DNA of 64,000 nt from Deltaproteobacteria bacterium (GTDB lineage Bacteria; Desulfobacterota; Binatia; UBA1149; CAYXZP01): positions 337 to 64,336 of the forward strand of contig JAYGCK010000004.1 of NCBI GenBank assembly GCA_046583395.1, in the 5' to 3' direction. Shown piece by piece: positions 2,034 to 54,252 of the stretch. How positions within the stretch are numbered: the stretch's first letter is position 1; the number at the start of each line of letters is the position of its first letter. The translations under genes were made by a program, and so were the position numbers. The notes under the pieces were generated by a model that was given only the letters and a program-made list of their open reading frames with translations, was not told the origin of the DNA and did not search any database.

Positions 2034-2127
2034 ACTTCTTACCCCCAACGTGGTTCTTTATAGCTTGTTCTTTCCATGTCCCCGGAGGGGTCCGTAAGGA
2101 TGGACCCCAGGCGAACGCGCAACGTAG

Positions 2128-2157
2128 AACTTAGTGACTTTGGGGCCCAAAAGTCAA
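2128..2157 (-). promoter_or_regulatory. Candidate sigma70-type promoter for paralog A (minus strand: TTGACT, 18 nt spacer, TAAGTT)
   Basis: rc of 2152-2157 = TTGACT. rc of 2128-2133 = TAAGTT. It lies ~95 nt upstream of the ATG at 2033. Confidence 0.3.
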
Positions 2158-2205
2158 GATATCTAGAGCAGCATTCCGACCACGGGCAGGGGATTTTACA
2201 CCTCT

Positions 2206-2223
2206 CCCCCCCCCTTAGGGGGG
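2206..2223. repeat. C9-TTA-G6 homopolymer hairpin
   Basis: ccccccccc tta gggggg read directly. It sits ~50 nt upstream of the putative -35 of paralog A. Confidence 0.6.
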
Positions 2224-2239
2224 CTGATGTAAAGGGCGG

Positions 2240-2277
2240 GAAGAAAAAAGCCCCGGGACCCTGTCGGCCCCGGGGCT
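2240..2277 (-). terminator. Rho-independent terminator of paralog B (minus strand)
   Basis: 8-bp GC stem gccccggg/cccggggc (2250-2257 with 2269-2276). On the minus strand it is followed by TTTTTTCTTCC (rc of 2240-2249). It lies 33 nt downstream of the stop at 2310. Confidence 0.55.
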
Positions 2278-2309
2278 TTCCTTGCCGTCTTACTGTACGG
2301 CCGTCGTCG

Positions 2310-4709: not shown

Positions 4710-4783
4710 GAATCAGATATCCCCCTGTTTGGTAGGTTCCCCTTAGCCTGGCCCACGAAGGGACAGCGGGGCACGTAACCGTC

Positions 4784-4813
4784 ATTGGTAGAAGCTAGTT
4801 CGGATGATGTCAA
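4784..4813 (-). promoter_or_regulatory. Candidate sigma70-type promoter for paralog B (minus strand: TTGACA, 17 nt spacer, TACCAAT)
   Basis: rc of 4808-4813 = TTGACA. rc of 4784-4790 = TACCAAT. A GGGGGA Shine-Dalgarno sits 12 nt before the ATG at 4709. Confidence 0.4.
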
Positions 4814-4928
4814 GAATTCAGGACGGTTCTTATAACCCGTTCAGGCGATGCGGCCGCCGGCTTTTGAGGCGAGGGAGGATTCGAGACCTCGCGCTCATGG
4901 GAGTTTTCGGTGAGCGTGCCCGTGGGCG

Positions 4929-4943
4929 CCCCCCCTTTGGGGG
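4929..4943. repeat. C7-TTT-G5 homopolymer hairpin
   Basis: ccccccc ttt ggggg read directly. It lies between the MBL stop (4968) and the paralog B promoter. Confidence 0.5.
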
Positions 4944-4967
4944 TGAGGTAGGCCGGGGCGGCGAGTC

Positions 4968-5654
4968 TTAGCCGGGAGCACCCATCATCGTTAGGAAATC
5001 CTCGACCCTTTCGAAACGCATGAAGGGGTTGTTGGTCTTCTCTCTCGCAATCGTCGAGGCCGGTTCTTCCGAGTAGGCGTGGCCCGGATAAAGGACCGTG
5101 TCGCCGGGCAATTTGGCCAGCTTTTGGGTCAGGCTGTAGTAGAGGTCGCTGGCATTGCTGCCGGGAAGGTCGACACGCCCGCAGGAGCCGATGAACAAGG
5201 TGTCGCCTGAGACCAGATTGTCGCCGGCCATGAAGCACTGCGAACCCGGTGTGTGTCCGGGCGTGTGGATGAAGCGAAGCGGGACCTTGCCGATACTGAT
5301 CTCGGTCTCGCCGTCGACGGCGACCATGTCGCTGGTCTCCAGTCCGATTGTTTGCGAGACCCAGGAGGCCTCTTCTTTGTTCACGTAGACCTTGACCCCG
5401 CGCTCTGTGAGCAACTCGGGGATACCGTCTATGTGCTGACCCATCATGTCCCCGCCTATGTGGTCGGGGTGAAAGTGGGTGACCAGCGCCCCGGTAAGCG
5501 TCATGTCGTCGTTGTCGAGCTGCTCGAGGATGGCCGGGATGTCCCACGCAGCATCGACCACCATCGCTTCGCGGCTTTCGGTGTCGCCGATGAGGTAGAC
5601 GTAGTTGGCCATCGGGCCGAGCAGCATCTGTTTCATGTATAGCGATGAGCCCAT
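4968..5654 (-). CDS. MBL-fold metallo-hydrolase (glyoxalase II-like)
   Basis: THFHPDHIGG (HxHxDH) motif, plus HTPGHTPGS and GDTLF. The start is chosen at MGSSLYMKQML (SD-like AGTAGGA); 5636 is an alternative start. Confidence 0.8.
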   Translation of the reverse strand: MGSSLYMKQMLLGPMANYVYLIGDTESREAMVVDAAWDIPAILEQLDNDDMTLTGALVTHFHPDHIGGDMMGQHIDGIPELLTERGVKVYVNKEEASWVSQTIGLETSDMVAVDGETEISIGKVPLRFIHTPGHTPGSQCFMAGDNLVSGDTLFIGSCGRVDLPGSNASDLYYSLTQKLAKLPGDTVLYPGHAYSEEPASTIAREKTNNPFMRFERVEDFLTMMGAPG

Positions 5655-5659
5655 CGGTC

Positions 5660-6301
5660 CTACTTCTTTGTCCTTGTGGCCTTCCGCTTGGACCTCTTCT
5701 TGGGGGACGGCTCGAGACCGTGTTGCCACAGGGTCTCCTTCTTGCGGCTCTTCTTTGCGATCCAGCGCGACTGCACGAACAGCAGGTCGCTGAGCCGGTT
5801 GAGGTAGCGCGCCGTCCACGGACCGGCGGCCTTCTTGCGTACCAGCGCGGTTACGGTCCTTTCGGCGCGCCTGCACACCGTTCGGGCCAGGTGGAGGGTC
5901 GCGCCTGCGGTACCGCCTCCCGGTAGCACGAAGGAACGGAGCGGTGCGAGGTCCTTTTGCAGCGCGTCCATCCCGGCCTCGAGCCTGTCGGTGTGCTTCT
6001 TGCCAACCGTAATCATTCCCTGGTAGGTCGCGCCGGGCGGGGTGGCCAGTTCCGAGCCCAGGTCGAACAGTTCCTGCTGGACGACTGCAAGTTCAGTGTC
6101 GAGGCGGCCCGAGGCCACCCGTCCTTTATAAGGGGGCTCGCCCAGGATTGCGCGTACCATGCCGACGACCGCGTTCAGCTCATCGACCTCGCCGTATGCC
6201 GAGATGCGCGGGTCGTCCTTGGGCACGCGCTTGCCGCCGACAAGGGCGGTTTTGCCGTCGTCGCCCGTGCGCGTGTAGACGCGGTTTATCCGTATGGCCA
6301 T
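5660..6301 (-). CDS. PduO-type ATP:cob(I)alamin adenosyltransferase with a 35-aa Lys/Arg-rich C-terminal tail
   Basis: N-terminus MAIRINRVYTRTGDDGKTALVGGKRVPKDDPRISAYGEVDELNAVVG is the classic PduO/MMAB signature. The tail reads KKSRKKETLWQHGLEPSPKKRSKRKATRTKK. Confidence 0.85.
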   Translation of the reverse strand: MAIRINRVYTRTGDDGKTALVGGKRVPKDDPRISAYGEVDELNAVVGMVRAILGEPPYKGRVASGRLDTELAVVQQELFDLGSELATPPGATYQGMITVGKKHTDRLEAGMDALQKDLAPLRSFVLPGGGTAGATLHLARTVCRRAERTVTALVRKKAAGPWTARYLNRLSDLLFVQSRWIAKKSRKKETLWQHGLEPSPKKRSKRKATRTKK

Positions 6302-6329
6302 TGTCGGGCAGGTCTAGCCGCTGCCCGGC

Positions 6330-7412
6330 TCAACCGCCAACACGGGCTTCGATGAGGTCGAGAAGGCGCTCGGGGTCGATGGGTTTCTTGAAAATGACGT
6401 CGTCGAGCCCGTCGGTCTTCGAGCGTTTTATTACATGGTCCTTGTCGTAATAGTACGCCGTCATCAGGACGACGGGCACGGACCCCGGCTGCCCGTTGAC
6501 TTCCCTGAACAGGTCGTAGCCGTCCATGTCGGGCATCACCACGTCGCTGATTACCAGGTCGGGGGTCTGCTCTTTGATCGCTTCGAGTGCCTCGAGCCCC
6601 GTTGCGCGCAGCATTACCTTGCAGCCCTCTGCGCCGAGTATCTCGGACATGGTCGAACGGATCTCTTCATCATCATCGACCACAAGTATGATCTTGCCCG
6701 ATAAATGACGGTTGCCGTCGTGTGCCGGTATGGAGCCCGTCTCTTCCTCGCCCAGGCCGAGGTCGGTCATCAGGCGGCCCGGCATATACTCGATGGTTCC
6801 GTAGGTCCCGGCCGCGGCTATCTCACCGACCCGTTCGACGATGGTCTGGATGCGGCGCAGCCCGCGCTTCATCGCTACGATGCGGTCGTGCCCGGACTTG
6901 TACACTTGCGTATCGACGTTGTTCTTGACGAAGCGCTCGAGCATGTCCGCGTGATTTACCAGAGACTCAAGTGGGTTGTTTATTTCGTGGGCCAGCCCGA
7001 TGGCCAGCTCGCCTAGGGTTGCGATCTGTTCGTGCAGGCGAAGCTCTTCGATGTCCTTGGCAAAACCGATGCTGCCCTGTTCGCGTTCCTTTTCGTCGTA
7101 GATGATTGAGCCCGAGACCGCCACGGGGATGCGTTTGCCGTCCTTGTCGACGAACTGTGTCTCGAAGTTCTTTACACGCCCGGCGCCCGATTCGGTCTCA
7201 CTGCGCATTGCGGCCATCACTCGCTTGGCCTCTTCGGCCGAAGGATAGAGCTCGAAAACGTGGGTGCCCAGCACCTCTTTGGCGGTGTAGCCGAGGGTGA
7301 GCGTTGCCCCGTCGTTGTAGAAGATGACCGTCCCCTTACGGTCGACCGCGACGACTATGTCGGGCGAACTTTCGAGCAGTCGTTCGAAGTAGACTTTGGG
7401 GAGTTCTTTCAA
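6330..7412 (-). CDS. PAS - HisKA(DHp) - receiver domain protein lacking a HATPase_c catalytic domain
   Basis: H-box LAHEINNPLESL. The C-terminal REC domain has the DDD ... SDVVMPDMDG ... LMTAY ... FKKP residues. There are only ~45 aa between the DHp and REC domains and no N/G1/G2 ATP-binding boxes. A PAS-like segment lies N-terminal (FELYPSAEEAKRV..TQFVDKDGKRIP). Confidence 0.8.
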   Translation of the reverse strand: MKELPKVYFERLLESSPDIVVAVDRKGTVIFYNDGATLTLGYTAKEVLGTHVFELYPSAEEAKRVMAAMRSETESGAGRVKNFETQFVDKDGKRIPVAVSGSIIYDEKEREQGSIGFAKDIEELRLHEQIATLGELAIGLAHEINNPLESLVNHADMLERFVKNNVDTQVYKSGHDRIVAMKRGLRRIQTIVERVGEIAAAGTYGTIEYMPGRLMTDLGLGEEETGSIPAHDGNRHLSGKIILVVDDDEEIRSTMSEILGAEGCKVMLRATGLEALEAIKEQTPDLVISDVVMPDMDGYDLFREVNGQPGSVPVVLMTAYYYDKDHVIKRSKTDGLDDVIFKKPIDPERLLDLIEARVGG

Positions 7413-7560
7413 TCGTTCGTAGGGGGTCGCAGGCGAGGGGCCGTCGAGGACGGCCTCCGTTTCACGGTATCCCCATGCCCGCTGTAGTCAAGACCGGTGC
7501 CCATCCCGGCGGGTGTCCGGGGGGGCTCTTATCGGGCATAATCCCTGGCTGCTGCCCGTG

Positions 7561-8010
7561 ATGTCACCGACAAGAAACCGCCGGTTGCCCGCGCTGCTGC
7601 TTTTGGCCGCCCTCGTGCTGCTGGCCGCGGGCTGCCAAGGGCGCCGCTTCGACCGGCAACTGACCGTTCATTCCGAACTGCTTGCCACCATGGCTGCCGA
7701 TGCTGCGGCCTCCTTGGAACAGCGGGCCGGGATGCCCGAGATACTCGGTCTCAGGTACCCGCTTGCCCGTGCCCGGGGCCTGGCTGCTCGTGGGACCGAG
7801 CGCTATCCCGGCCGCCCCTCGCTGGCGGCCTTCGAGGCGCTGGTGGCCGATTACGCCCTTCTGGTCGAACATTTGGAGCGCACCCGTGCGTTGGCCGGGA
7901 GCGTGGACGCCGTGGACCGGCAGTCCATCGATGAAGCGCGCCGGCTGGCCCGTCAGGTGGCCGAAGGCCGCGGCGACCTGCTCGTGTTGTTGGGTGGCGA
8001 GGGCCGCTAG
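7561..8010 (+). CDS. Hypothetical lipoprotein
   Basis: MSPTRNRRLPALLLLAALVLLAAGC is a signal peptide with a lipobox. The ORF runs to the stop at 8010. It is divergent from the PAS-HisKA-REC gene. Confidence 0.5.
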   Translation: MSPTRNRRLPALLLLAALVLLAAGCQGRRFDRQLTVHSELLATMAADAAASLEQRAGMPEILGLRYPLARARGLAARGTERYPGRPSLAAFEALVADYALLVEHLERTRALAGSVDAVDRQSIDEARRLARQVAEGRGDLLVLLGGEGR

Positions 8011-8032
8011 GCCGCGGCCCAGCCCGACCTTC

Positions 8033-8677
8033 TTACTTGGGGACCTTTTCCCAGTCGGCCAGAAAACGTTCCAGTCCGATATCGGTCAGCGGGTGGTGGG
8101 TGATTTGTTCGAGCACACTGAAGGGACAGGTCGCGACCTCGGCACCCATCTGCGCCCCGCGAATAAGATGGGTGGGGTTTCTTACGCTGGCGACCAGGAC
8201 CGAGGCCGGGTAGTCGTAGTTGGAGAGCATCTCACAGAGGATTGCCACCATTTCCATCCCGTCCTCGCCGATGTCGTCGAGCCGGCCGACAAAGGGACTG
8301 ATGTAGGTCGCCCCAGCCTTTGCCGCTAAAAGTCCCTGGACCGGTTGGAAGACCAGGGTCACGTTGACATTGATGCCTTCGCTCGAAAGTTGCTTGGTCG
8401 CCTTGAGCCCTTCGACAATCATCGGGACCTTGACGACTATGTTGGGGTGAATGGCGGCCAGGCGGCGGCCTTCCTCGAGCATGCCCGCGCATTCGGTGCT
8501 GACCACCTCGGCGCTTATCGGGCCATCGACGACCTCGCATATATCGGCCAGCGCGCTCTCGAAGCTGCGGCCCGTCTTGGCGATCAGCGAGGGGTTGGTC
8601 GTCACTCCGTCGATGATGCCCCAGGAATTGGCCTCGCGAATCTGGTCGATGTCGGCGCTGTCGATAAAGAGCTTCAT
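8033..8677 (-). CDS. tal: Transaldolase / fructose-6-phosphate aldolase (TalC/MipB family, ~214 aa)
   Basis: [31 protein letters not shown] ... [11 protein letters not shown] ... ISPFVGR are hallmark motifs. Confidence 0.85.
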
Positions 8678-9162
8678 GGTTCGTAGAGCCGCACTCTTTT
8701 AGCGTCGTCGGTTGCCGCCAACAAGGCCGACACTGTGCGTCCACACACAGGGTGGACCAGATCGGGGGCCAGCTCCGACATTGGCAAGAGGACAAAGCGG
8801 CGCTCGGAGAGGCGGGGGTGGGGCACCACAAGCTCGGGCTGGTCGATGATTCGGCCGTCGTAGAAAAGGATATCCAGGTCTATCGTCCGCGAAATCGAAG
8901 CGCCGCCCCGCTTGCGCCCCATCGAGGTCTCGAGCGCCTGTAGCTCACCGAGGAGGGTGCCGGGGTCGAGGTCGGTGGATATTTCGACTGCGCCGTTGAG
9001 GAACCAGTTCCGTGCCCGGCCGTGCGGTTCGCTCTCGTAGACCGACGAGCAGCGCTTTAGCCTGGTGGCTTCGAGCCGCCCCAGGCCCGCCATTGCGGTC
9101 TGCAGGTTGGCGTACCGGTCGCCAAGGTTGCTGCCAATCGCGATGTAGACCGGGTGGCTCAC
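8674..9162 (-). CDS. folK: 2-amino-4-hydroxy-6-hydroxymethyldihydropteridine pyrophosphokinase (HPPK)
   Basis: [11 protein letters not shown] ... RTIDLDIL ... VVPHPR. A GTG start at 9160-9162 is chosen just downstream of the dapB stop. The ATG at 9300 would overlap dapB by 125 nt. Confidence 0.75.
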
Positions 9163-9175
9163 CCCGTGTTCGTGT

Positions 9176-9994
9176 TCAGTCCCCGGCCAGGACGTCTCGC
9201 ATGGAGTAGAGACCGGCCGGCTTTCCGGCCAGCCACGCGGCCGCGCTGAGAGCACCGAGGGCCAGGCAGTCGCGAGAGGTCGCACGGTGGACCAGTTCAA
9301 TCCGCTCGCCGTTGCCGACCAGCATGACCGTGTGCTCGCCGGCGCTATCGCCGCCGCGAAGAGCGACGACGCCTATCTCACCGCTAGGGCGGGCGCCGAC
9401 CGTGCCCTGCCTTGCCGTTACCAGGTCCTTGGCCGGATTGGCGCCGGAGGCCTCGGCCGCCCGTTCGGCCAGCGCAAGGGCGGTCCCGCTCGGAGAGTCT
9501 TTTTTCTGGTTGTGGTGGAGCTCGACGATCTCGCAGTCGAAATCCTTCCCGAGCATGCCCACGGCCGAGCCGACCAGTTCGGACAGTACGGCAACGCCGC
9601 GGCTGACGTTGGCCGCGATAAGCGTCGGCATGGTGGTGGCCAGCGACTCGGCCTCGGCACGCTGGCCGGCGTCCATCCCCGAGGAGCCGACCACGATGGC
9701 CAGGCCCTTGTCGGCGGCCGTGCGCATGTTCTCCAGCGAGGCTTCGGCACTGGTGAAGTCCAAACACACCGCACCCGGCTCGCCGGCCGAGGCCAGGTCT
9801 TGGCCGATCTCGACCCCGAGCGCTTCGGTGCCGGCCACCGTTCCGGCGTCCTGGCCGAGGACCGGGCTCGAGGCAGCCTCGGTGGCACCGACCACGGTGA
9901 AGCGCGGGTCCTGGTATGCCAGCGCGATAATTCTTTTGCCCATGCGCCCGGCAGCGCCGCAGACGATGAGCTCGACCTTTCGTTCGGAGCTCAT
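9176..9994 (-). CDS. dapB: 4-hydroxy-tetrahydrodipicolinate reductase
   Basis: MSSERKVELIVCGAAGRMGKRI ... EIVELHHNQKKDSPSGTA. The start ATG overlaps the dapA stop by 1 nt. Confidence 0.9.
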   Translation of the reverse strand: MSSERKVELIVCGAAGRMGKRIIALAYQDPRFTVVGATEAASSPVLGQDAGTVAGTEALGVEIGQDLASAGEPGAVCLDFTSAEASLENMRTAADKGLAIVVGSSGMDAGQRAEAESLATTMPTLIAANVSRGVAVLSELVGSAVGMLGKDFDCEIVELHHNQKKDSPSGTALALAERAAEASGANPAKDLVTARQGTVGARPSGEIGVVALRGGDSAGEHTVMLVGNGERIELVHRATSRDCLALGALSAAAWLAGKPAGLYSMRDVLAGD

Positions 9995-42633: not shown

Positions 42634-43467
42634 TCACGGGGCGTGGGCGAAGCCACGTTTCTCCATCAGCCATCGCAGTATGGCCTTGGTGGCACGCGGG
42701 TCGATTGAGAACACGGTGTCGGACCTTTTACTGGTCTGTGCCAGTAGCGCGTGCGGGGCGTCCTTTATGACCACGAGCTTGGTCGCAAGCTTGCTGCCCG
42801 GTTCGTTCTTACGCGCATCGGCGACGAACTCGCCGAACTGAAAACGGTCTTCGGGAGCCTCGTCACCGACGACCACCAGTGTTGGAGCTGTAATCCTCAC
42901 GGCGGCCCGTTCTCCGACCTGGTTCGACAAAAGTACCACGCCGGCCACCGGGTTGATGTCCTCGTAGCGGGGGTAGATTCCCGCGATTGTGCCCGTTCCC
43001 GAACTGTGGCCGATGAGGAACACGCGTGAGGCGTCTATGCGGGCATGGTCTACTGCCCGCCGGTAGGCTTCGAGCGCGGTCGAACGGTCAGTGGCGTAGC
43101 GCCCCGGACTACTGCGCCCGGCCCCCGGCGCGTCGTAACGAAAGACGGCAAAGCCATTGCTCACCAACAGGTCGGTCAGTCGGGCGTAGATGCCGTCGTC
43201 ACCTTCGTTGCCGGTATCGGGCAGCGAGCCGTGGCGGTCTATCCGGCCCGCCGGAGGAACCAACAGTACCAACGGTGCGTTACCTTCGGCGGGGAAGTCC
43301 CACTGCGCGGCCACCACCGAGTCGACGCTTTCGAAGGTGGTCTCGGCCACGGGCGGGCGTGAACCGGGCTTGGGCGAGGCCACGGCGGTGGTTGCCGCCA
43401 CCAGCATGGCCATTGCGACGGCCGCGCCGAGCTTTGTCCTGAGCGGAGATGTCGTAGGGGCTGTCAA
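42634..43467 (-). CDS. Secreted alpha/beta hydrolase
   Basis: Signal peptide, GHSSG nucleophile elbow. Confidence 0.7.
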   Translation of the reverse strand: MTAPTTSPLRTKLGAAVAMAMLVAATTAVASPKPGSRPPVAETTFESVDSVVAAQWDFPAEGNAPLVLLVPPAGRIDRHGSLPDTGNEGDDGIYARLTDLLVSNGFAVFRYDAPGAGRSSPGRYATDRSTALEAYRRAVDHARIDASRVFLIGHSSGTGTIAGIYPRYEDINPVAGVVLLSNQVGERAAVRITAPTLVVVGDEAPEDRFQFGEFVADARKNEPGSKLATKLVVIKDAPHALLAQTSKRSDTVFSIDPRATKAILRWLMEKRGFAHAP

Positions 43468-43522
43468 GGAAGGCCGCGGGCCTGCCGCGGACTTTCAATC
43501 TGTGCTCCAGCAGCGCGGTGAG

Positions 43523-43759
43523 TCAAGACGGCCAACCCCGGCATGCTAGCGCTTCGCCGATGTGCGCGGCCGCAATCAGTTCGCTGTCGGCGAGGTCGGC
43601 GATAGTACGGGCAACGCGGGTCGTGCGTACGATTGAACGGCCACTGAGCCCGAGCTTGACCGCTGCTCTTACCATGAGCCGGTCGGCCTCGGGGCACAAG
43701 GTCTCGATGAGCGGCCGGGCCTGCGGCCGTTCCCGTGCACGACGGCGGGCCCGTCGGTA
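43523..43759 (-). pseudogene. 3'-terminal remnant (~75 codons) of comM/yifB (Mg-chelatase-like competence protein)
   Basis: Minus-strand frame reads ..ARPLIETLCPEADRLMVRAAVKLGLSGRSIVRTTRVARTIADLADSELIAAAHIGEALACRGWPS*. This matches the YifB/ComM C-terminus (LGLS.R ... RVARTIADL ... EAL.YR). An in-frame stop lies at 43760-43762. No AAA+ or N-terminal part exists in any frame upstream. Confidence 0.6.
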
Positions 43760-43869
43760 TCAATGACCCATCTGTTATTTAGCGCGTCGCGTCCGTCCGG
43801 CCTATTTGTCACGGGGCTCGCTCTGAGGGCTACGCTGGAAGTTCCGGTCGCACGCCGTAGGATGGGGCC

Positions 43870-44436
43870 GTGCTGTTGATGATCGATAACTATGACTCGT
43901 TCACCTACAACCTGGTTCAGTACCTGGGCGAGCTGGGTGCCGAGATAGAGGTCCACCGCAACGATCGTATCTCGGTCGAGGAGGTCCAGGCCAGGTCGCC
44001 CTCGGCCCTGCTTGTTTCGCCGGGCCCCTGCGACCCGGACAAGGCCGGCATCTCGGTTGACCTCATAAAGGCCATGGCCGGCCAGGTCCCGGTCCTCGGC
44101 GTGTGCCTCGGGCACCAGTGCGTCGGCCAGGCCTTCGGGGCCCGAATCGTACGCGCCGACCGTCTAATGCACGGCAAGACCTCGCCGATAGAGCACGACG
44201 GCCGCGGAATTTTCGAGGGGCTCGAACAGGGCTTTACCGCCACACGCTATCATTCGCTCATCGTTGAACGTGCCAGCATTCCCGAGGACTTCGAGATAAG
44301 CGCGTGGACGGCCGAGGGCGAGATTATGGGTCTTCGTCACAAGGAGATGGCCATCGACGGCGTTCAGTTCCATCCCGAATCGATACTGACAGAGGCCGGC
44401 AAGCAGTTGCTCGGTAACTTCCTGGCCACGCTGTGA
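43870..44436 (+). CDS. Glutamine amidotransferase of anthranilate / aminodeoxychorismate synthase (TrpG/PabA type)
   Basis: [19 protein letters not shown] ... GVCLGHQ ... HSL. Confidence 0.85.
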
Positions 44437-44951
44437 AGTTCGTCTCGCCATGGCCACGACGGTTGTGCACGGGCCTGTTGCTCTCGACAGCGGTCCTGGT
44501 CCTGCCGGGCTGCGCCACCTTGCGCGTTTTGCTCCTGCCGCGTTCCCCGTCGGCCGGGCCGGCCGGACAGCCGGCCGCGCAGGCCGTGGCGCCTAGCGGC
44601 GCCGAGCGGGCGCTGCTTTGCGGGGCCGCACGGGTATTGCAGGAGGCTGGCTTCAGTACCGCCGCGCTCGGAGACCGGGTGCTGGCCAACCGGCGTCTGC
44701 TACCCGAGCGCGGGCGCGTCGAGCTATTGGCCGGCCAATACGAGGTCGAAACGGACCCGGGCCACGAGGGGCCGGCGGTGCTTCGGTTGGCCTTGTCCGG
44801 CGGCGACGACGGCCTTTCCGTGGACCTTTCGACGGCGGGCTTTTCGATGAGCGCGGCCGCAGGCAAGGGCTTTGCCGAAGCGCTTCGTTCGGCGGCCTCC
44901 GATGCCGCGGCCTCGGCCGAATGCGCGCCTGGCCGGGCCGGACTTAAATAA
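44433..44951 (+). CDS. Hypothetical lipoprotein
   Basis: [13 protein letters not shown] lipobox. ATGA overlap with the upstream gene. Confidence 0.5.
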
Positions 44952-45048
44952 CAGTCCGGTCATTGCCCCCGCGGCGGGCCGGCTCGCCACGGGCCCTGTT
45001 TAGCCAGTGCGCCGATGAACTGCCCGCCCGCTCATCGATACCGGCGAG

Positions 45049-45354
45049 ATGTTCGCGGTCCTCGGACTCGGTCCCGCAGCCGGGGCCGCGGCCGGTGCCG
45101 GGGATGCCGAAAGTCCGGATAAGCCCGATAGGTCGCGGCTTCTCGCCCTTCTCAGGGACGGTCCCCAGCTGCTCGACGGGTTGGTTTCGGCCAGCGGGTT
45201 TGACGGCGCACGCGTCTTGGAGTTGTTAACAGCGCTCGAAATCGGGGGACTGGCCGAACGCACGTCGAGCGGCCTGTTCCGGGCCACGGTGAGACTCCGC
45301 CCGAACGGGGGGGGGGTTGACAACTGCGGCCCGACGGGCTTCCCGTATCAGAGG
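45049..45354 (+). pseudogene. Remnant of the dprA C-terminal winged-helix domain, in frame with topA
   Basis: SRLLALLRDGPQLLDGLVSASGFDGARVLELLTALEIGGLAERTSSGLFRATVR matches the DprA C-terminal (WH) consensus ..L..L..P...DeL....gl....l...L..LEl.GlV.r..Gg.y.r. No DprA Rossmann domain lies upstream in any frame. Confidence 0.5.
45307..45316. repeat. G10 homopolymeric tract 39-48 nt upstream of the topA ATG
   Basis: gggggggggg read directly. Confidence 0.6.
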
Positions 45355-47706
45355 ATGGCTGCAACCAAGCTTGTCATAGTGGAGTCGCCCGCCAAGGCGC
45401 GGACGCTGTCGCGCTATCTCGGCCGCGACTACCTCGTCAAGGCCTCGGTCGGTCACATCGCCGACCTGCCCAAGAGCAAGCTCGGTGTTGACGTCGACGA
45501 CAACTTCAAGCCCGACTACGAAATCATCCACGGCAAGGGCAAGGTCATCAAGGAGCTCAAGGCTGCGCTCAAGGGCAAGGACGCGCTCTATCTGGCACCC
45601 GACCCGGACCGTGAGGGCGAGGCCATTGCCTACCACATTGCCGAGCGTGTCGTGCCCAAGTCCTTCAAGGGTGAGGTGCACCGGGTGCTGTTCAACGAGA
45701 TTACGCGTTCGGGTGTCAAGGACGCCATCGCCAAGCCGGGAAAACTGGACATCGATAAGTTCGAAGCGCAGCAGGCCCGCCGTCTGATAGACCGTCTGGT
45801 CGGTTATCAGATAAGTCCATTGCTGTGGGAGAAGGTGCGTCGTGGTCTTTCGGCCGGACGCGTGCAGTCGGTGGCCGTCCATCTGATTGTCGAACGCGAC
45901 CGTGCCATCAAGGCCTTCGAGGCCGTCGAGTATTGGAGCATCACCGCCTCGCTCAACCCGACCGATGATAAGGACGCCGTGTTCAAGGCGCGCCTCATCG
46001 AGGTCGGCGGCAGCAAGATTGATCTGGCAAAGCTGCGCGAGGGCAAGAAGGACGAGGCCTTCTTCATCGGCGACGAGAAACAGGCCGGCGATATCATCAG
46101 CCGTCTCCAGGGTCGCGACGATTGGAATGTCGCGGCCATCAAGCGCTCGGCGCGCACGCGCAAGGCTCCGCCGCCTTTTATCACCTCGACGCTTCAGCAG
46201 GAGGCCTCGCGCAAGCTCGGTTACCAGCCCCGCCGCACCATGTCGGCGGCCCAGCGCCTGTACGAGGGCGTAGACCTCGGCGAGCATGGGATGACCGGGC
46301 TTATAACCTACATGCGCACCGATTCGGTGCGTTCGGCCCCCGAGGCCATCGATGCGGTGCGCGGCTACATAAAGAAGGAGTACGGCCAGGACTATCTTCC
46401 CGACAAGCCCAACGCCTATAAGACCAAGAAGGCCGCGCAGGACGCTCACGAGGCCATACGCCCGGCTTCGATGGATCTGCCGCCTGCGGCGGTGGCCAAA
46501 CACCTCAAGGCCGAGGAGCTAAAGGTCTACACCTTGGTGTGGAACCGCTTTGCCGCCAGTCAGATGCGGCCGGCGGCCTACGACCAGACCAGCGTCGACA
46601 TATCGAGCGATGATTGCGTGTTCAGGGCCTCGGGGCAGGTGATGAAGTTCGACGGTTTTCTCAAGATTTACGAGGAGGGTCGCGACCAGCCCTCCGACGA
46701 CGACGATGACATCGGCGCCCTGCCCGAGCTTGCCGAAGGCCAGGGGCTGGGTATGTCCGGCTTGGAGCCCGCCCAGCACTTCACCCAGCCGCCGCCTCGG
46801 TTCACGCAGGCATCTCTCATTCGCGAACTCGAGGAGAACGGCATCGGCCGGCCTTCGACCTATGCCTCTATCATGTCGACCATCATCGGGCGCGAGTACG
46901 TCACCCAGGACGACAGCCGGCGATTGCTGTCCACGCAGTTGGGCGAACTGGTCACCGACCTTCTTACCGAGGCCTTCCCCGACATCCTCAACGTGGAGTT
47001 CACCGCCGGGCTTGAGGACCATCTCGACCTGGTGGAGGGGGGAAGCGAGGATTGGCTGACGGTCACAAAGCGATTCTACGAACCCTTCAAGGCCAATCTG
47101 GAAAAGGCCAAGGTGGAGATGCCCGACGTCAAGGGGCGCGTCGAGGAGACCGAACTTCCCTGCGAGAACTGTGGCCACAAGTTGGTCGTCAAGTGGGGCA
47201 AGAACGGGGAGTTCCTGGCCTGCCCCGACTACCCGGACTGTAAGTTCACCAGCAACTTCGTTCGCCTGGACGACGGCACCATCGAGATTGAGGAACCCGA
47301 GGAGACCGGAGAGGTCTGCGACGAGTGCTCCAGTCCGATGCAATACAAATGGGGGAGCTACGGTAAGTTCCTCGGTTGTTCGGCCTACCCAGAATGCAAG
47401 AACGTGCGTTCTCTCAACCGCCCGGTGCCGATCGGGCTGGCCTGTCCGCCCGAGCCGCTCGGCTGCGGCGAGGGTGAGATGATGCGCAAGGTCTCGCGCC
47501 GGGGCCGGGTGTTCTACGGGTGCAATCGCTATCCCAAGTGCGAGTTCGCGTTGTGGGACAAGCCGGTCGAGGCGCCCTGCCCGGAGTGCGACGCGGCCTT
47601 CGTGGTCGAGAAGACCACCAAGCGTGCCGGCACGGTCAGACGCTGCCCCAGCGAGGACTGCGAGTACCAGGAGAGCATCGGCGAAGTGACAGCCGAGCAG
47701 GCCTGA
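45355..47706 (+). CDS. topA: DNA topoisomerase I with C-terminal zinc-ribbon repeats
   Basis: MAATKLVIVESPAKARTLSRYLG ... Toprim, then the topo IA core, then four Cx2C ... Cx2C ribbons. Confidence 0.9.
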   Translation: MAATKLVIVESPAKARTLSRYLGRDYLVKASVGHIADLPKSKLGVDVDDNFKPDYEIIHGKGKVIKELKAALKGKDALYLAPDPDREGEAIAYHIAERVVPKSFKGEVHRVLFNEITRSGVKDAIAKPGKLDIDKFEAQQARRLIDRLVGYQISPLLWEKVRRGLSAGRVQSVAVHLIVERDRAIKAFEAVEYWSITASLNPTDDKDAVFKARLIEVGGSKIDLAKLREGKKDEAFFIGDEKQAGDIISRLQGRDDWNVAAIKRSARTRKAPPPFITSTLQQEASRKLGYQPRRTMSAAQRLYEGVDLGEHGMTGLITYMRTDSVRSAPEAIDAVRGYIKKEYGQDYLPDKPNAYKTKKAAQDAHEAIRPASMDLPPAAVAKHLKAEELKVYTLVWNRFAASQMRPAAYDQTSVDISSDDCVFRASGQVMKFDGFLKIYEEGRDQPSDDDDDIGALPELAEGQGLGMSGLEPAQHFTQPPPRFTQASLIRELEENGIGRPSTYASIMSTIIGREYVTQDDSRRLLSTQLGELVTDLLTEAFPDILNVEFTAGLEDHLDLVEGGSEDWLTVTKRFYEPFKANLEKAKVEMPDVKGRVEETELPCENCGHKLVVKWGKNGEFLACPDYPDCKFTSNFVRLDDGTIEIEEPEETGEVCDECSSPMQYKWGSYGKFLGCSAYPECKNVRSLNRPVPIGLACPPEPLGCGEGEMMRKVSRRGRVFYGCNRYPKCEFALWDKPVEAPCPECDAAFVVEKTTKRAGTVRRCPSEDCEYQESIGEVTAEQA

Positions 47707-47708
47707 GC

Positions 47709-49049
47709 GTGAGCGAACGGGTAACGGTGATTGGCGGCGGGCTGGCCGGCAGCGAGGCCACCTATCATCTCGCTCAGGCCGGAGTCGGGGTCGATCTCTA
47801 CGAGATGCGTCCCTGCCGCAGCACGGACGCACACAAGACCGACCGTCTGGCCGAACTGGTCTGCTCGAACTCCTTTCGCGACAACAGCACGATGACCGCG
47901 GTCGGAGTGCTGAAGCGCGAGATGCGAGCGATGGGCTCGCTGGTGATGAAGGTCGCCGACGAGGTGGCCGTGCCCGCCGGTTCCGCCCTGGCTGTGGACC
48001 GCGTACGCTTTGCCGAAGGTGTGACGGCCGCCGTCGAGGGACTCGACAGCGTGACCATACACCGCCAAGAACTGCTCGACATCCCCGATGGGCCGGTCTG
48101 TATCGTTGCCACGGGGCCCTTGACCTCGCCCGAGCTGAGCCGGTCGCTGGCGCGTTTCATCGGCACCGAGCACCTCTATTTCTACGACGCTATCTCTCCC
48201 ATCATCACGGCCGATTCCGTCGATATGACCCGTACCTTTAGGGCCTCGCGTTACAACAAGGGCGGGGACGACTATGTGAACTGCCCGCTCGACCAGGAGA
48301 CCTACGAGGGTTTCATCGACGCGTTGATGGAGGCCGACAAGGTTCCGCTCAAGAGCTTCGAGCGTTGCACCTACTTCGAAGGCTGCATGCCGGTCGAGGA
48401 GCTGGCCCGGCGCGGGCGCGATACTCTCAGGTTCGGTCCCATGAAGCCGGTCGGGCTCCAGCCGCCCGATGGCAGCCGGCCACATGCGGTGGTGCAGTTG
48501 AGACAGGACGACCGGGAAGGCCGCCTGCTGAGCATGGTCGGTTTCCAGACCAAGATGACCTACGGTGAGCAGCGACGTGTTTTCCGCAGTATTCCGGGGA
48601 TGGAAGCGGCCGAGTTCGTGCGGCTGGGCAGCCTCCACCGCAACACCTTCATCAATTCGCCGCGCGCTCTGACGCGCGAACTGATGGTACGCGGTAGCCG
48701 GGGCGTGTTCGTGGCCGGTCAGCTTGTCGGTGTCGAGGGTTATGTAGAGTCGGCGGCCAGTGGAATGTTGTGCGGGCTCAACGCGGCCCGCCTGTTGGGG
48801 GGGCTCGAGCCGGCCTCGCCGCCGTCGACCACGGCCTTGGGTTCGCTGCTCGATTACGTGACCGAACGTAGCCGGCGCGAGTTCCAGCCGATGAACGCCA
48901 ACTACGGGCTGTTCCCCCCGCTTGGCCGGCGTCTGCGAGGACGCGAGAAAAAGAAGGCGCTTGGCAGCCGGGCCGAGGCGGACCTGCACGCGTGGATGTC
49001 CGAGGTTCCAGTTGGGAATCCGGAACGTCTGTGCAGAACTTCTAGCTAG
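47709..49049 (+). CDS. trmFO: Methylenetetrahydrofolate-tRNA-(uracil-5-)-methyltransferase TrmFO (GTG start)
   Basis: VSERVTVIGGGLAGSEA ... LFFAGQ-like region FVAGQLVGVEGYVESAASG. Confidence 0.85.
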   Translation: MSERVTVIGGGLAGSEATYHLAQAGVGVDLYEMRPCRSTDAHKTDRLAELVCSNSFRDNSTMTAVGVLKREMRAMGSLVMKVADEVAVPAGSALAVDRVRFAEGVTAAVEGLDSVTIHRQELLDIPDGPVCIVATGPLTSPELSRSLARFIGTEHLYFYDAISPIITADSVDMTRTFRASRYNKGGDDYVNCPLDQETYEGFIDALMEADKVPLKSFERCTYFEGCMPVEELARRGRDTLRFGPMKPVGLQPPDGSRPHAVVQLRQDDREGRLLSMVGFQTKMTYGEQRRVFRSIPGMEAAEFVRLGSLHRNTFINSPRALTRELMVRGSRGVFVAGQLVGVEGYVESAASGMLCGLNAARLLGGLEPASPPSTTALGSLLDYVTERSRREFQPMNANYGLFPPLGRRLRGREKKKALGSRAEADLHAWMSEVPVGNPERLCRTSS

Positions 49050-49171
49050 AACGAAGAAAATCGCCGCACCTGCTTCGAATCCGTTGACAGGACGGGGCAA
49101 GGCGCGGCATCCTGTGCGCTGGTCCGGGTTGGCCGGGCAAGAAAAACCCAGAAGCAAAGGAAGGAGACAGC

Positions 49172-49441
49172 ATGACAAAATCCGATCTCATCGAAGCCGT
49201 TGCCAAGGCGACGGGACTATCAAAGCGCGGCGCAGCGGGGGCCGTCGACGCCACGATTGTCGGCATTTCCAAGGGCATCAAGAAGGACAAGAGACTGTCG
49301 ATTTCCGGTTTCGGCACCTTCACCGTGCGAAAGCGCGGCGCTCGCACAGGCCGCAATCCCCAGACCGGCGAAGAGATTCAGATTTCTGCCAGCCGGACGG
49401 TCGGCTTCAAGCCGGCCCCCGGCCTCAAGAAAGGGCTCTAA
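49172..49441 (+). CDS. HU/IHF-family DNA-binding protein (second paralog)
   Basis: MTKSDLIEAVAK ... GFGTFTVRKRGARTGRNPQTGEEIQI. GGAAGGAGA Shine-Dalgarno. Confidence 0.9.
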   Translation: MTKSDLIEAVAKATGLSKRGAAGAVDATIVGISKGIKKDKRLSISGFGTFTVRKRGARTGRNPQTGEEIQISASRTVGFKPAPGLKKGL

Positions 49442-49481
49442 GGTATCGGCGCTGGCCGCTGCCGGCGTTCAACGAAACAAT

Positions 49482-53466: not shown

Positions 53467-54252
53467 ATGGCCCAGCATCAAAGGTATCGATTCGCACCCC
53501 CGGGGGGTGGCGGGCTTGGCATAGGTCCGGGCGCACGCGTGCCGCCGACGGTCAAGGCGCTGATGATCGCCTGTACGACCGTTTACCTTGCCGAGGCGTT
53601 CGGTGGCCGCCGGTTCCTTATCGAGGCCTTCGGGCTGATTCCGGAAAGCGTGGCCGGGTTCGAGTTGTGGCGCCTGTTCACCTACCAGTTCCTCCACGGC
53701 AGCGTGTGGCATCTGGCCATGAACATGTTCATGCTGTGGATGTTCGGTTCCGAGCTCGAGGATCGTTGGGGCCGGACCTTTTTCCTCAAATACTATTTCT
53801 TGTGCGCGGTGGGTGGCGCCATCGTTTATACGTTGGTGCGCTTTGGGACGGTGACCCCGAGCGTGGGCGCCTCGGGCGCGATTTACGGGATACTGATGGC
53901 CTACGCGGTGTGGTTCCCCAACCGGGAGGTCTACCTGTGGTTCATGTTCCCGATAAAGGTGCGGACGTTGGTCGTCTTCCTGATGGCCATAGAGTTCATC
54001 CAGGCCATAGAGCAGACCGGCACCGGCATCGCGCACGCCGCTCACTTTGGCGGGATGGGATTCGGTTACCTCTATCTGAAGTGGTGGCAACGCAGTGGCA
54101 CCACGAGTTCGGCGGGCGGTGGTCCGGGTCTGGACCTTTCGGGGTTTCCGCTGAGCCTGAAAGAGCTTCGGCGGGTCTGGTACCGTTGGCAGTTCCGGCG
54201 TCTTCAGCGAAAGCGGATGGGCAAGGACGACAGTGGGCCGACCCTGCACTGA
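53467..54252 (+). CDS. Rhomboid-family intramembrane serine protease
   Basis: GASGAIYG catalytic serine motif and AHFGG histidine in the last TM. Confidence 0.8.
   Translation: MAQHQRYRFAPPGGGGLGIGPGARVPPTVKALMIACTTVYLAEAFGGRRFLIEAFGLIPESVAGFELWRLFTYQFLHGSVWHLAMNMFMLWMFGSELEDRWGRTFFLKYYFLCAVGGAIVYTLVRFGTVTPSVGASGAIYGILMAYAVWFPNREVYLWFMFPIKVRTLVVFLMAIEFIQAIEQTGTGIAHAAHFGGMGFGYLYLKWWQRSGTTSSAGGGPGLDLSGFPLSLKELRRVWYRWQFRRLQRKRMGKDDSGPTLH

Follow-up and report, generated by a model that had tools for sequence, protein, structure and literature searches.

In an uncultured marine Binatia bacterium, remnants of the natural-transformation genes comM and dprA bracket an intact trpG/pabA-type amidotransferase gene and a gene for a predicted lipoprotein, which raises the question of whether the gene pair destroyed both of its neighbours or whether these decayed on their own. 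A sequence-only reading of the stretch of DNA analysed here (64,000 nucleotides, the window) had placed the comM remnant, the dprA remnant, the pabA-like gene and the lipoprotein gene at coordinates that were confirmed by Pfam and ORF checks (Table 1), and had proposed that a ~1.1-kb segment carrying the pair replaced the 5′ halves of the divergent comM and dprA genes, together with their shared promoter region, in one event. Our analysis points instead to a stepwise pseudogene decay of the two genes, not to an insertion knocking out both, a reading to which we assign a probability of roughly 85%.

Table 1. Features of the comM-dprA locus (positions in the window).
Feature	Position	Strand	Evidence
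comM (YifB-family) 3′ remnant	43523-43742	-	Pfam, tblastn, alignment, divergence
comM native start region and first 7 codons	43743-43763	-	Alignments with L094
Left motif copy, TAAATAACAG-N3-GGTCATTG	43761-43781	-	Repeat search
Native comM-pabA intergenic region	43782-43869		Local alignment to L012; conserved in L094
trpG/pabA-type glutamine amidotransferase, intact	43870-44436	+	Pfam, TIGR00566, L012 ortholog, pN/pS
Predicted lipoprotein, lineage-specific	44433-44951	+	GC frame plot, L012 ortholog, pN/pS
Right motif copy, TAAATAACAG-N3-GGTCATTG	44945-44965	+	Repeat search; core also in L012
dprA 5′ remnant, RRAGSPRALFSQCADELPA	44972-45028	+	tblastn, DNA alignment, profile, codon comparison
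Junction of the 688-nt internal dprA deletion	45022-45031	+	Codon-level comparison with L012
dprA 3′ remnant, linker and winged-helix domain	45022-45320	+	tblastn, Pfam DprA_WH
Poly-G tract, length variable	45307-45316	+	Comparison of assemblies
topA, intact, 783 aa	45355-47706	+	Pfam Toprim, Topoisom_bac, Zn_ribbon_Top1

Since the window and every relative come from metagenomes, and one contig (L177) appears chimeric or recombinant past position 43917, the truncations might be assembly artefacts that arose through collapsed or chimeric contigs. However, the same arrangement is present in the MAG GCA_046583415.1 and in more than 15 independent Logan/ENA contigs from different samples (95-100% identity), and the junctions in these assemblies are identical, so the probability of an artefact is practically negligible.

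We compared the comM feature with its counterpart in L012, the closest sampled relative (TopA 89% identical) and the sole one between 60% and ~100% TopA identity. Window 43526-43759(-) is recognised by Pfam Mg_chelatase_C over profile positions 40-94 of 94 (PF13335; E 2.6e-13; 50.8 bits, cut-off 26), and the feature has the position and orientation of comM in eight relatives. It consists of the stop codon and the ~77 last codons, approximately residues 430-506 of the L012 protein, and was aligned with the ComM C-termini of nine relatives; L012 ComM residues 432-506 match it with 57% identity (tblastn, E 1e-18). The Lon-like ChlI N-terminal domain (PF13541), present in L012, is absent from the window by Pfam and tblastn, and the AAA+ core (PF01078, Mg_chelatase), which is found in L012 ComM at E 7.8e-85, has no match at 43300-45500 or elsewhere in the window. 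With its C-terminal domain kept and its descent from the ComM/YifB family (TIGR00368) shown by synteny, the feature is a remnant of that family and not a functional member.

Both fragments had been taken for pure 3′ ends, and this does not hold for either. In comM, the start region and seven codons (TTG ATA CCG ACG GGC CCG CCG) are retained, the 3′ remnant being out of frame relative to this start; the ATG of the comM gene of strain L094 is ATA in the window allele. A deletion with its junction at 43742|43743 has removed ~419 codons (~1.26 kb, codons ~8-428). In L094, the same 21 nt run on into ComM residues 10-63, which survive in this strain only (85% identical to L012, E 5e-7 against YifB models); codons 1 to ~65 are kept there and the remainder is gone. 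L092 comM has an extra deletion of 103-114 nt at a short CCGG-type microhomology, and the window allele is also carried by L001, L003 and L175-L178. Within the species, the flanking genes diverge by 1.2-1.4%, versus 5.4% in the comM remnant (against L092) and 5.7-7.1% in the dprA 5′ remnant, both of which are neutral-like. The comM polymorphisms are nonsynonymous at seven sites and synonymous at two, and the window allele has drifted away from residues common to L092 and L012.

The dprA gene is also left in two pieces. The 3′ remnant, corresponding to residues 276-375 (53% identity to L012 DprA by tblastn, E 1e-24), is recognised by DprA_WH (PF17782) at 45049-45354(+) with E 1.4e-08 and 35.1 bits against a cut-off of 22.9; the homology to DprA begins at 45022, upstream of ATG 45049, and the ancestral stop codon is the TGA within TTGACA. 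No Pfam signal is left at the window dprA for the DNA_processg_A Rossmann-fold domain (PF02481), which spans residues 75-279 in L012 DprA and which binds ssDNA and loads RecA. The 5′ remnant corresponds to L012 DprA residues ~28-49 (the peptide RRAGSPRALFSQCADELPA to residues 30-48), in a frame different from that of the 3′ remnant. It was detected by tblastn (E 0.015-0.02), by DNA alignment (window 44971-45031 to L012 8926-8986) and by a six-frame scan of 351 nt with a profile built from 57 DprA N-termini (E 1e-3), these being weak scores (E ~1e-3 to 2e-2) from small search spaces. Between the motif copy and this remnant, ~110 nt of L012 (ribosome-binding site, start codon and ~27 codons) are missing, and downstream of it the 688-nt deletion takes out residues ~50-275 and results in a frameshift. 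A codon comparison with L012 8980-8985 and 9668-9673 shows that the deletion junction falls on a directly repeated CGCCCG; L092, L093 and L094 have exactly this junction, which is common to all strains that cover it.

The fragments are thus ComM- and DprA-derived by their Mg_chelatase_C and DprA_WH matches, and both genes are inactivated at this locus, as the sequence-only reading had stated. No second copy of either gene was found within the window, and a protein search of 5.8 billion proteins gave no close full-length DprA or ComM. Searches with the lipoprotein, the DprA remnant and the L012 ComM protein yielded neither an intact allele nor a closer sister lineage.

The genes between the remnants present a different picture. 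The trpG/pabA gene encodes 188 aa from a GTG start; window 43870-44433 matches Pfam GATase class I (E 3.6e-60), and the protein belongs to NCBIfam TIGR00566 (trpG_papA; 259.5 bits, cut-off 121). It is a full-length class-I GATase in which the motifs of the Cys-His-Glu triad, GVCLGHQ and HPES, are readable, while for anthranilate versus aminodeoxychorismate synthesis every equivalog model was below its cut-off. The gene is 86% identical to its L012 ortholog (pN/pS 0.07-0.19), and a box upstream of it, CCGTCCGGCCTATTTGTCA (43792-43810), is common to L012 7644-7662 (17/19 identical, a score reached in 1/300 shuffles). The lipoprotein gene (172 aa) overlaps pabA by GTGA, with a GTG start at 44433 and the TGA at 44434-44436, and not by ATGA as had been claimed; its L012 ortholog, 51% identical, shares a 4-nt overlap with pabA. 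Its codon-position GC pattern agrees with its frame (pN/pS 0.34-0.43), and the ORF has no family match in Pfam or NCBIfam. The predicted signal peptide ends in an LPGC lipobox with an unusual Pro at -2, the L012 ortholog having the canonical LSAC; the AlphaFold2 model (pLDDT 32.5) was too low for use. At the sequence level, pabA, the lipoprotein gene and topA remain under purifying selection. A metagenome scan with PabA returned only generic TrpG/PabA proteins (≤69% identity) and no relatives at an intermediate distance.

The state of the relatives bears directly on how the pair and the truncations are connected. In L012, the pabA-lipoprotein pair immediately precedes an intact 375-aa dprA (TIGR00732, 208 bits versus 191), and an intact 506-aa comM is found on the same scaffold (TIGR00368, 454 bits versus 362), linked to the rest across a 10-N scaffold gap and separated from dprA by an additional block of ~6 kb. 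By blastn, L012 7727-8697 is syntenic with window 43866-44860, and L012 9789-14113 with window 45140-49463. More distantly, comM(-) directly adjoins dprA(+)-topA without pabA in seven related Binatia loci, which bears out the claim that comM and dprA were ancestrally divergent neighbours, and topA directly follows dprA in 77 of 80 related loci. As comM is directly divergent from dprA-topA in distant Binatia, pabA and the lipoprotein gene would be an older insertion between then-intact genes. Hence, the pair is an insert relative to the more distant Binatia, as had been proposed, but L012 has it beside intact genes.

A single replacement event could call on the direct comM-dprA neighbourhood in these distant loci and on a 21-nt inverted repeat that lies on both sides of the pair. 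It is contradicted by L012, by the alleles that differ between strains, and by the survival in the window of the start region of comM, the native sequence between comM and pabA and the dprA N-terminal piece; in L094, the comM N-terminus is even retained beside the same pabA upstream sequence. The breakpoints do not coincide with the edges of the pabA-lipoprotein segment but fall within the comM and dprA genes, the one in dprA being internal, at the CGCCCG repeat, ~70 nt past the lipoprotein stop codon, and the inverted repeat is also found beside the intact L012 genes. Hallmarks of a genomic island or transposon were lacking, with no integrase or transposase and no significant direct repeats between the remnants; at 43760-43869 and 44952-45048, neither direct repeats nor remnants of an integrase site turned up apart from the inverted motif. 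We therefore consider one event removing both 5′ halves to be extremely improbable. The inverted repeat itself (TAAATAACAG-N3-GGTCATTG) has two matches in the window versus zero expected. Its left copy lies directly upstream of the comM start, which it overlaps, and the right copy precedes the dprA remnant and extends over the stop codon of the lipoprotein gene; a conserved 18-nt core, ATAACA-N4-S-GTCATTG, is found in L012 at the comM start (1572-1589(-)) and upstream of the intact dprA (8790-8807(+)). The repeats could accordingly be the ends of a transposase-less cassette, with the pair (and the 6-kb block in L012) as its cargo, which would have inserted into the comM-dprA interval of the common ancestor and truncated neither gene. 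In both species, the copies do bound the inserted material exactly, and the insert is missing in more distant relatives. However, each copy is fixed in orientation and position relative to the comM or dprA start, and the core is conserved between species with ~50% synonymous difference, which fits cis-regulatory selection better than relict transposon ends. As neither the rest of the 64 kb nor 161 other loci contain a further copy of the core, and as a transposase and a target-site duplication are both missing, the cassette appears unlikely. A continuous inverted duplication around the pair was rejected: similarity is confined to two separate 21-nt blocks and does not extend to the intervening 40-56 nt (510/1000 shuffles score equally).

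Stepwise decay would start from an ancestral Binatia locus with comM(-) divergent from dprA(+)-topA(+). Before L012 and the window species separated, their common ancestor would have gained pabA and the lipoprotein gene in the comM-dprA interval, with both flanking genes left intact. In the window species, dprA would then have lost the 688 nt between the CGCCCG direct repeats, and with them the whole RecA-loading Rossmann domain, as well as the ~110 nt from its 5′ end. Thereafter comM would have decayed independently, strain by strain (window, L092 and L094 alleles), and the G tract that ends the dprA remnant would slip between 8 and 11 G. We infer that dprA was lost before comM, on the assumption that the strains inherited their common deletion from one ancestor and did not acquire it repeatedly. 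The deletions probably arose by slippage or illegitimate recombination, and loss of transformation would be the phenotype. Two independent decays had been offered as a fallback in the sequence-only reading; the independence stands, and the count rises to at least four or five events.

Contrary to the other remnants, which diverge by 5-7% within the species, the dprA 3′ remnant diverges by only 1.3-2.0%, like the functional neighbours. Its polymorphisms in the DprA frame are synonymous at seven sites and nonsynonymous at two, small counts with nine polymorphic sites. Against L012, pS = pN = 0.16, compared to a pS of 0.46-0.54 in the neighbours, and identity to L012 reaches 94-95% over positions 45197-45285, which rank as one of the two most conserved 88-nt windows across 13 kb of synteny. 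As the remnant evolves non-neutrally, part of this 'pseudogene' may still have some function. It could have been kept as a winged-helix mini-protein or, more likely, for a topA promoter or leader located in the final 120-170 nt of dprA, a tentative reading to which we give slightly less than even odds; topA signals would fix the 3′ limit of any tolerated deletion. The mini-protein would be an 89-aa ORF, or a fusion to TopA where the tract is G10. The tract is G10 in the window, G8, G9 or G11 in other assemblies and G6 in L012. With G10, the remnant is in frame with topA, which gives an 885-aa ORF (45049-47706), and in the G8 strains ATG 45049 starts an 89-aa ORF; an ORF of 89-90 aa is annotated by gene callers. 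However, the C-terminal frame is freely shifted by the G tract, and the ribosome-binding site at ATG 45049 is poor. A sigma-70-like promoter was not found, a scan of 43400-45450 giving no promoter-like sites and terminator-like sites at chance level, and structured RNA was indicated neither by Rfam, which had no match, nor by the folding of 45185-45360, which was not significant (z -1.47). Since the conservation of the dprA 3′ end is not elevated in the other Binatia clade, any constraint would be lineage-specific. A wider combination, in which the winged-helix stub is functional (as the 89-aa protein or as a G10 N-terminal extension of TopA), the G8-G11 tract is a phase switch before the essential topA, and ATAACA-N4-S-GTCATTG is the signal of a competence regulon specific to this Binatia lineage, seems very unlikely to us.

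The stepwise loss of dprA and comM is a known kind of event, ordinary gene decay. As in reductive decay at short repeats, the window has deletions of 0.1-1.3 kb with 4-9 nt of microhomology, neutral remnant rates, a lost start codon and an unstable homopolymer; nothing essential differs, and what is added is the co-existence of comM deletion alleles in one population together with a fixed dprA deletion. Natural-transformation genes are lost or interrupted within lineages, and transformability varies by strain (PMC11472951, PMC6744872). The same pattern is seen here, as comM and dprA are inactivated in the window lineage and intact in a close relative, and strains carry different alleles. In Acinetobacter baumannii, comM is interrupted by AbaR-type islands. 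In contrast, the damage in the window is due to small microhomology deletions without a mobile element, the genes between the remnants are housekeeping-type and predate the loss, and the host is an uncultured marine Binatia lineage. In Bacillus subtilis, dprA(smf), topA and trmFO(gid) form a conserved gene cluster. The window has the corresponding order of dprA remnant, topA and a GIDA-family (trmFO-like) gene, but its dprA is a frameshifted stub whose 3′ end is kept and is unusually conserved in DNA.

The locus provides a population-level example of pathway dismantling, with a fixed dprA deletion that would have been followed by several independent comM deletion alleles, and it corrects a tempting single-event story. 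This suggests that the marine Binatia population may no longer be able to process transforming DNA through DprA and ComM, which bears on gene exchange in such uncultured lineages. The current understanding of competence or genome decay is unchanged; two small leads are the 5′ motif common to two competence genes and the constrained dprA 3′ end, with its candidate topA control signals. Another inverted-repeat pair, 43700-43720 versus 45022-45042 (19/21 complementary), corresponds to ARPLIET in ComM and ARPLIDT in DprA; it is probably a coincidence, both arms appearing native to their genes.

We examined the locus between comM and dprA and found that, as the sequence-only reading had described, a C-terminal comM remnant on the minus strand and a dprA remnant on the plus strand enclose a pabA-like gene and a lipoprotein gene. 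This is supported both by profile matches (Table) and by recurrence in independent assemblies. The MAG GCA_046583415.1 has the same arrangement at 95-100% identity, as do more than 15 Logan/ENA contigs that come from different samples, and the arrangement is therefore real. The overlap between pabA and the lipoprotein gene, previously given as ATGA, is actually GTGA. The lipoprotein ORF gave no family match; its frame agrees with the codon-position GC pattern in this high-GC DNA (~62-74% across the locus region), purifying selection of moderate strength acts on it, and an ortholog is present in the closest sampled relative, L012 (CAYXZP010000022.1). No second comM or dprA copy was found within the 64-kb window, and no close intact DprA or ComM was found in a collection of 5.8 billion proteins.

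Table. Features of the locus in the window and in its closest relative, L012 (coordinates of each sequence)
Feature	Position	Strand	Description
Window, comM remnant	43526-43759	minus	78-codon open frame; PF13335 Mg-chelatase-like ATPase C-terminal domain, E 2.6e-13, profile positions 40-94 of 94
Window, motif copy 1	43761-43781	minus	abuts comM start
Window, pabA	43870-44436		trpG/pabA class-I glutamine amidotransferase, 188 aa, between the remnants; TIGR00566 trpG_papA, 259 bits (cut-off 121)
Window, lipoprotein gene	44433-44951		putative, 172 aa; lipoprotein-type signal peptide
Window, motif copy 2	44945-44965	plus	upstream of dprA remnant
Window, dprA remnant frame	45049-45354	plus	DprA winged-helix domain PF17782, E 1.4e-08
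Window, topA	start 45355		
L012, comM	54-1574	minus	506 aa; TIGR00368, 454 bits (cut-off 362)
L012, ~6-kb block	1655-7644		comM to pabA; two amidohydrolases, SDR, TetR regulator, unknown ORFs
L012, pabA	7731-8297		
L012, lipoprotein gene	8294-8776		4-nt overlap with pabA, as in the window
L012, dprA	8840-9967		375 aa; PF02481, E 8.6e-64, and PF17782; TIGR00732, 208 bits (cut-off 191)
L012, topA	start 10001		

A TopA-anchored scan with one genome per species placed the window in Binatia and returned only one close relative, L012 (TopA 89% identical), the next ones being ~60% identical. In 77 of the 80 loci, topA is immediately preceded by a dprA homologue; dprA-topA-trmFO is an anciently conserved gene cluster. 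Next after L012 come seven loci (L013, L015-L019 and L021; gene identities in L013 were verified against NCBIfam) in which a full-length comM is directly divergent from dprA without pabA, and hence the supposition that comM and dprA were once divergent neighbours is correct for the deeper ancestry. The gene order of L012 implies that the pabA-lipoprotein pair already sat beside an intact dprA, and comM is intact there too. This is decisive against the proposal that the pair replaced the divergent 5' halves of both genes in one event. The ~6-kb block that follows comM in L012 has no counterpart within the 64-kb window; as a caveat on the L012 gene order, a 10-N scaffold gap separates this block from comM (~L012 1677-1686). 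In contig L177, the 617 nt upstream of 43917 are the same as in the window, and beyond that point pabA differs by 16.5% (L177 1-231, corresponding to window 43870-44100), the diverged part being about as distant from L012 as from the window. L177 is chimeric or else a recombinant, and reveals a third related lineage in sample SRR27277816.

We then compared dprA with its intact counterpart. By blastn, L012 7727-8697 aligns to window 43866-44860 and L012 9789-14113 to window 45140-49463, and at the protein level window 45022-45312 corresponds to L012 DprA residues 276-374 (53% identity, E 1e-24). Directly upstream of this 3' remnant and in a different frame, a 5' piece (44972-45028) encodes RRAGSPRALFSQCADELPA, which aligns to L012 DprA residues 30-48 (window DNA 44971-45031 to L012 8926-8986) and matches a profile of DprA N-termini (n = 57; consensus ekFgsPeavFaasedelaa) at E 1e-3 when 351 nt are searched in all six frames. 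A codon-level comparison with L012 puts the deletion junction at GCCCGCCCG (45022-45031), and CGCCCG is present on both sides of the junction in L012 (8980-8985 and 9668-9673). The dprA gene has thus lost 688 nt between short direct repeats, a frameshifting deletion that removes the entire Rossmann-fold domain. A further ~110 nt, which in L012 hold the ribosome-binding site, the start codon and ~27 conserved N-terminal codons, are gone between the upstream motif and dprA residue 28. The junction is identical in the more diverged strains of the same species that cover it (L092, L093 and L094).

In the case of comM, the window remnant keeps ComM residues ~430-506 (43526 to ~43737). The strain L094, from a Tara marine metagenome, has flanking DNA 96.5% identical to the window and differs from it between 43541 and 43743, where it encodes ComM residues 10-63 (85% identical to L012; YifB models positions 2-52, E 5e-7). 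The 21 nt at 43743-43763 (TTG ATA CCG ACG GGC CCG CCG; TTG ATG ... in L094) are common to both and continue directly into the ComM N-terminus in L094, showing that the window keeps the native comM start region, with ATG changed to ATA, and the first 7 codons. After these, the window allele resumes out of frame at ~codon 428, having lost ~1.26 kb internally, and the L094 allele carries a separate internal deletion from ~codon 65 to within ~5-10 codons of the stop. Neither allele is derivable from the other, which implies that comM still had both ends beside the present pabA upstream region after the gene pair had arrived. The window allele is also found in contigs L001, L003 and L175-L178, and in L092 it has lost a further 103-114 nt at a short microhomology of the CCGG type, a deletion that starts at window 43690 and takes out the comM start region too. 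Contigs L179 and L180 stop at 43538, near 43541 where L094 has its breakpoint, and this is expected of a strain-variable site.

The locus is best explained by a stepwise decay of dprA and comM, to which we give a probability of about 85%. The pabA-lipoprotein pair would have come between intact comM and dprA in an ancestor common to L012 and the window species; microhomology deletions would later have destroyed dprA, producing the allele common to all junction-covering strains; and comM, its partner in the pathway, would then have decayed via two or more independent deletions, which are still segregating in the population.

The 64-kb window has exactly two copies of the motif TAAATAACAG-N3-GGTCATTG (0 expected by chance). 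As inverted repeats around inserted genes, the two copies could be relict transposon ends, but this fits less well than a shared 5' regulatory signal of comM and dprA, since L012 carries the core ATAACA-N4-S-GTCATTG at both corresponding positions (1572-1589, minus; 8790-8807, plus), beside intact genes, and the core is conserved across ~50% synonymous divergence in a fixed orientation per gene. The motif may be a promoter or operator shared by comM and dprA; its core was not found in 161 other fetched loci. A second inverted pair, 43700-43720 (minus) and 45022-45042 (plus), is complementary at 19 of 21 nt, a score reached by none of 500 shuffles. The arm in the ComM remnant encodes ARPLIET and the one at the dprA deletion junction ARPLIDT; the pair is probably a coincidence, as both arms look like native coding sequence. 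In both species a separate box, CCGTCCGGCCTATTTGTCA, is conserved ~60-70 nt ahead of pabA (window 43792-43810, L012 7644-7662); it includes TTGTCA, a -35-like hexamer, and is probably the pabA promoter.

For substitution rates, the window was compared with L092, L093 and L094. The comM remnant (5.4% divergence; 7 nonsynonymous and 2 synonymous polymorphic sites) and the dprA 5' remnant (5.7-7.1%; 2 and 4) act as neutral DNA, their divergence being close to that of pabA and topA synonymous sites (4-7%). Overall, pabA, the lipoprotein gene and topA diverge by 1.2-1.5% from L092 and L093 (topA, 10 nonsynonymous and 30 synonymous). The window comM allele departs from residues common to L092 and L012 by three A to V changes, Y to C and E to A. 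Unlike the other two remnants, the dprA 3' remnant is not neutral (1.3-2.0% for L092 and L093; 2 nonsynonymous and 7 synonymous). Against L012, pS and pN are both 0.16 in its last 144 nt, compared to a pS of 0.46-0.54 in neighbouring genes. When 88-nt windows were scanned over 13 kb of synteny with L012 (mean identity 79%, sd 7%), 45197-45285, inside the dprA pseudogene, was one of the two best conserved (94-95% identical); the other equally conserved stretch is 53668-53780. These values suggest a DNA-level constraint on the dprA 3' end, most simply topA control signals within it, which would explain why every allele retains this piece. Searches of the dprA 3' end for promoter-like sites, Rfam families and a significant RNA fold were all negative, and the region is not specially conserved in the other Binatia clade. 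The remnant could also be a winged-helix mini-protein.

In transformation, RecA is loaded onto incoming single strands by DprA, and ComM acts as the branch-migration helicase; the locus hence marks the loss of that part of the transformation pathway, from which a loss of the transformation phenotype would be predicted. In Acinetobacter, comM is a classic island target, whereas the truncations at the window locus come without a mobile element. Competence-gene loss and strain-level polymorphism have been amply described for pathogens in culture (PMC11472951, PMC6744872), and the present case is a new instance, in an uncultured phylum, of an event type already known.

The motif, the constrained dprA stub and a G tract are modest leads. 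This tract (45307-45316), just before topA, is G10 in the window and L092, G11 in L093, G9 in contigs L004-L008 and G6 in L012. G8, in contigs L001 and L002, keeps the ancestral frame, whose stop is the TGA of TTGACA, and G10 puts the winged-helix remnant in frame with topA as an 885-aa ORF (45049-47706 in the window). The variation could be true slippage or a homopolymer assembly error. A few kb downstream of pabA, past topA, trmFO-like and HU genes, contig L004 carries an Aminotran_4 (class-IV aminotransferase) gene (6064-6954) that could encode either a PabC-like aminodeoxychorismate lyase or a branched-chain aminotransferase, and its identity bears on whether the amidotransferase works as PabA.
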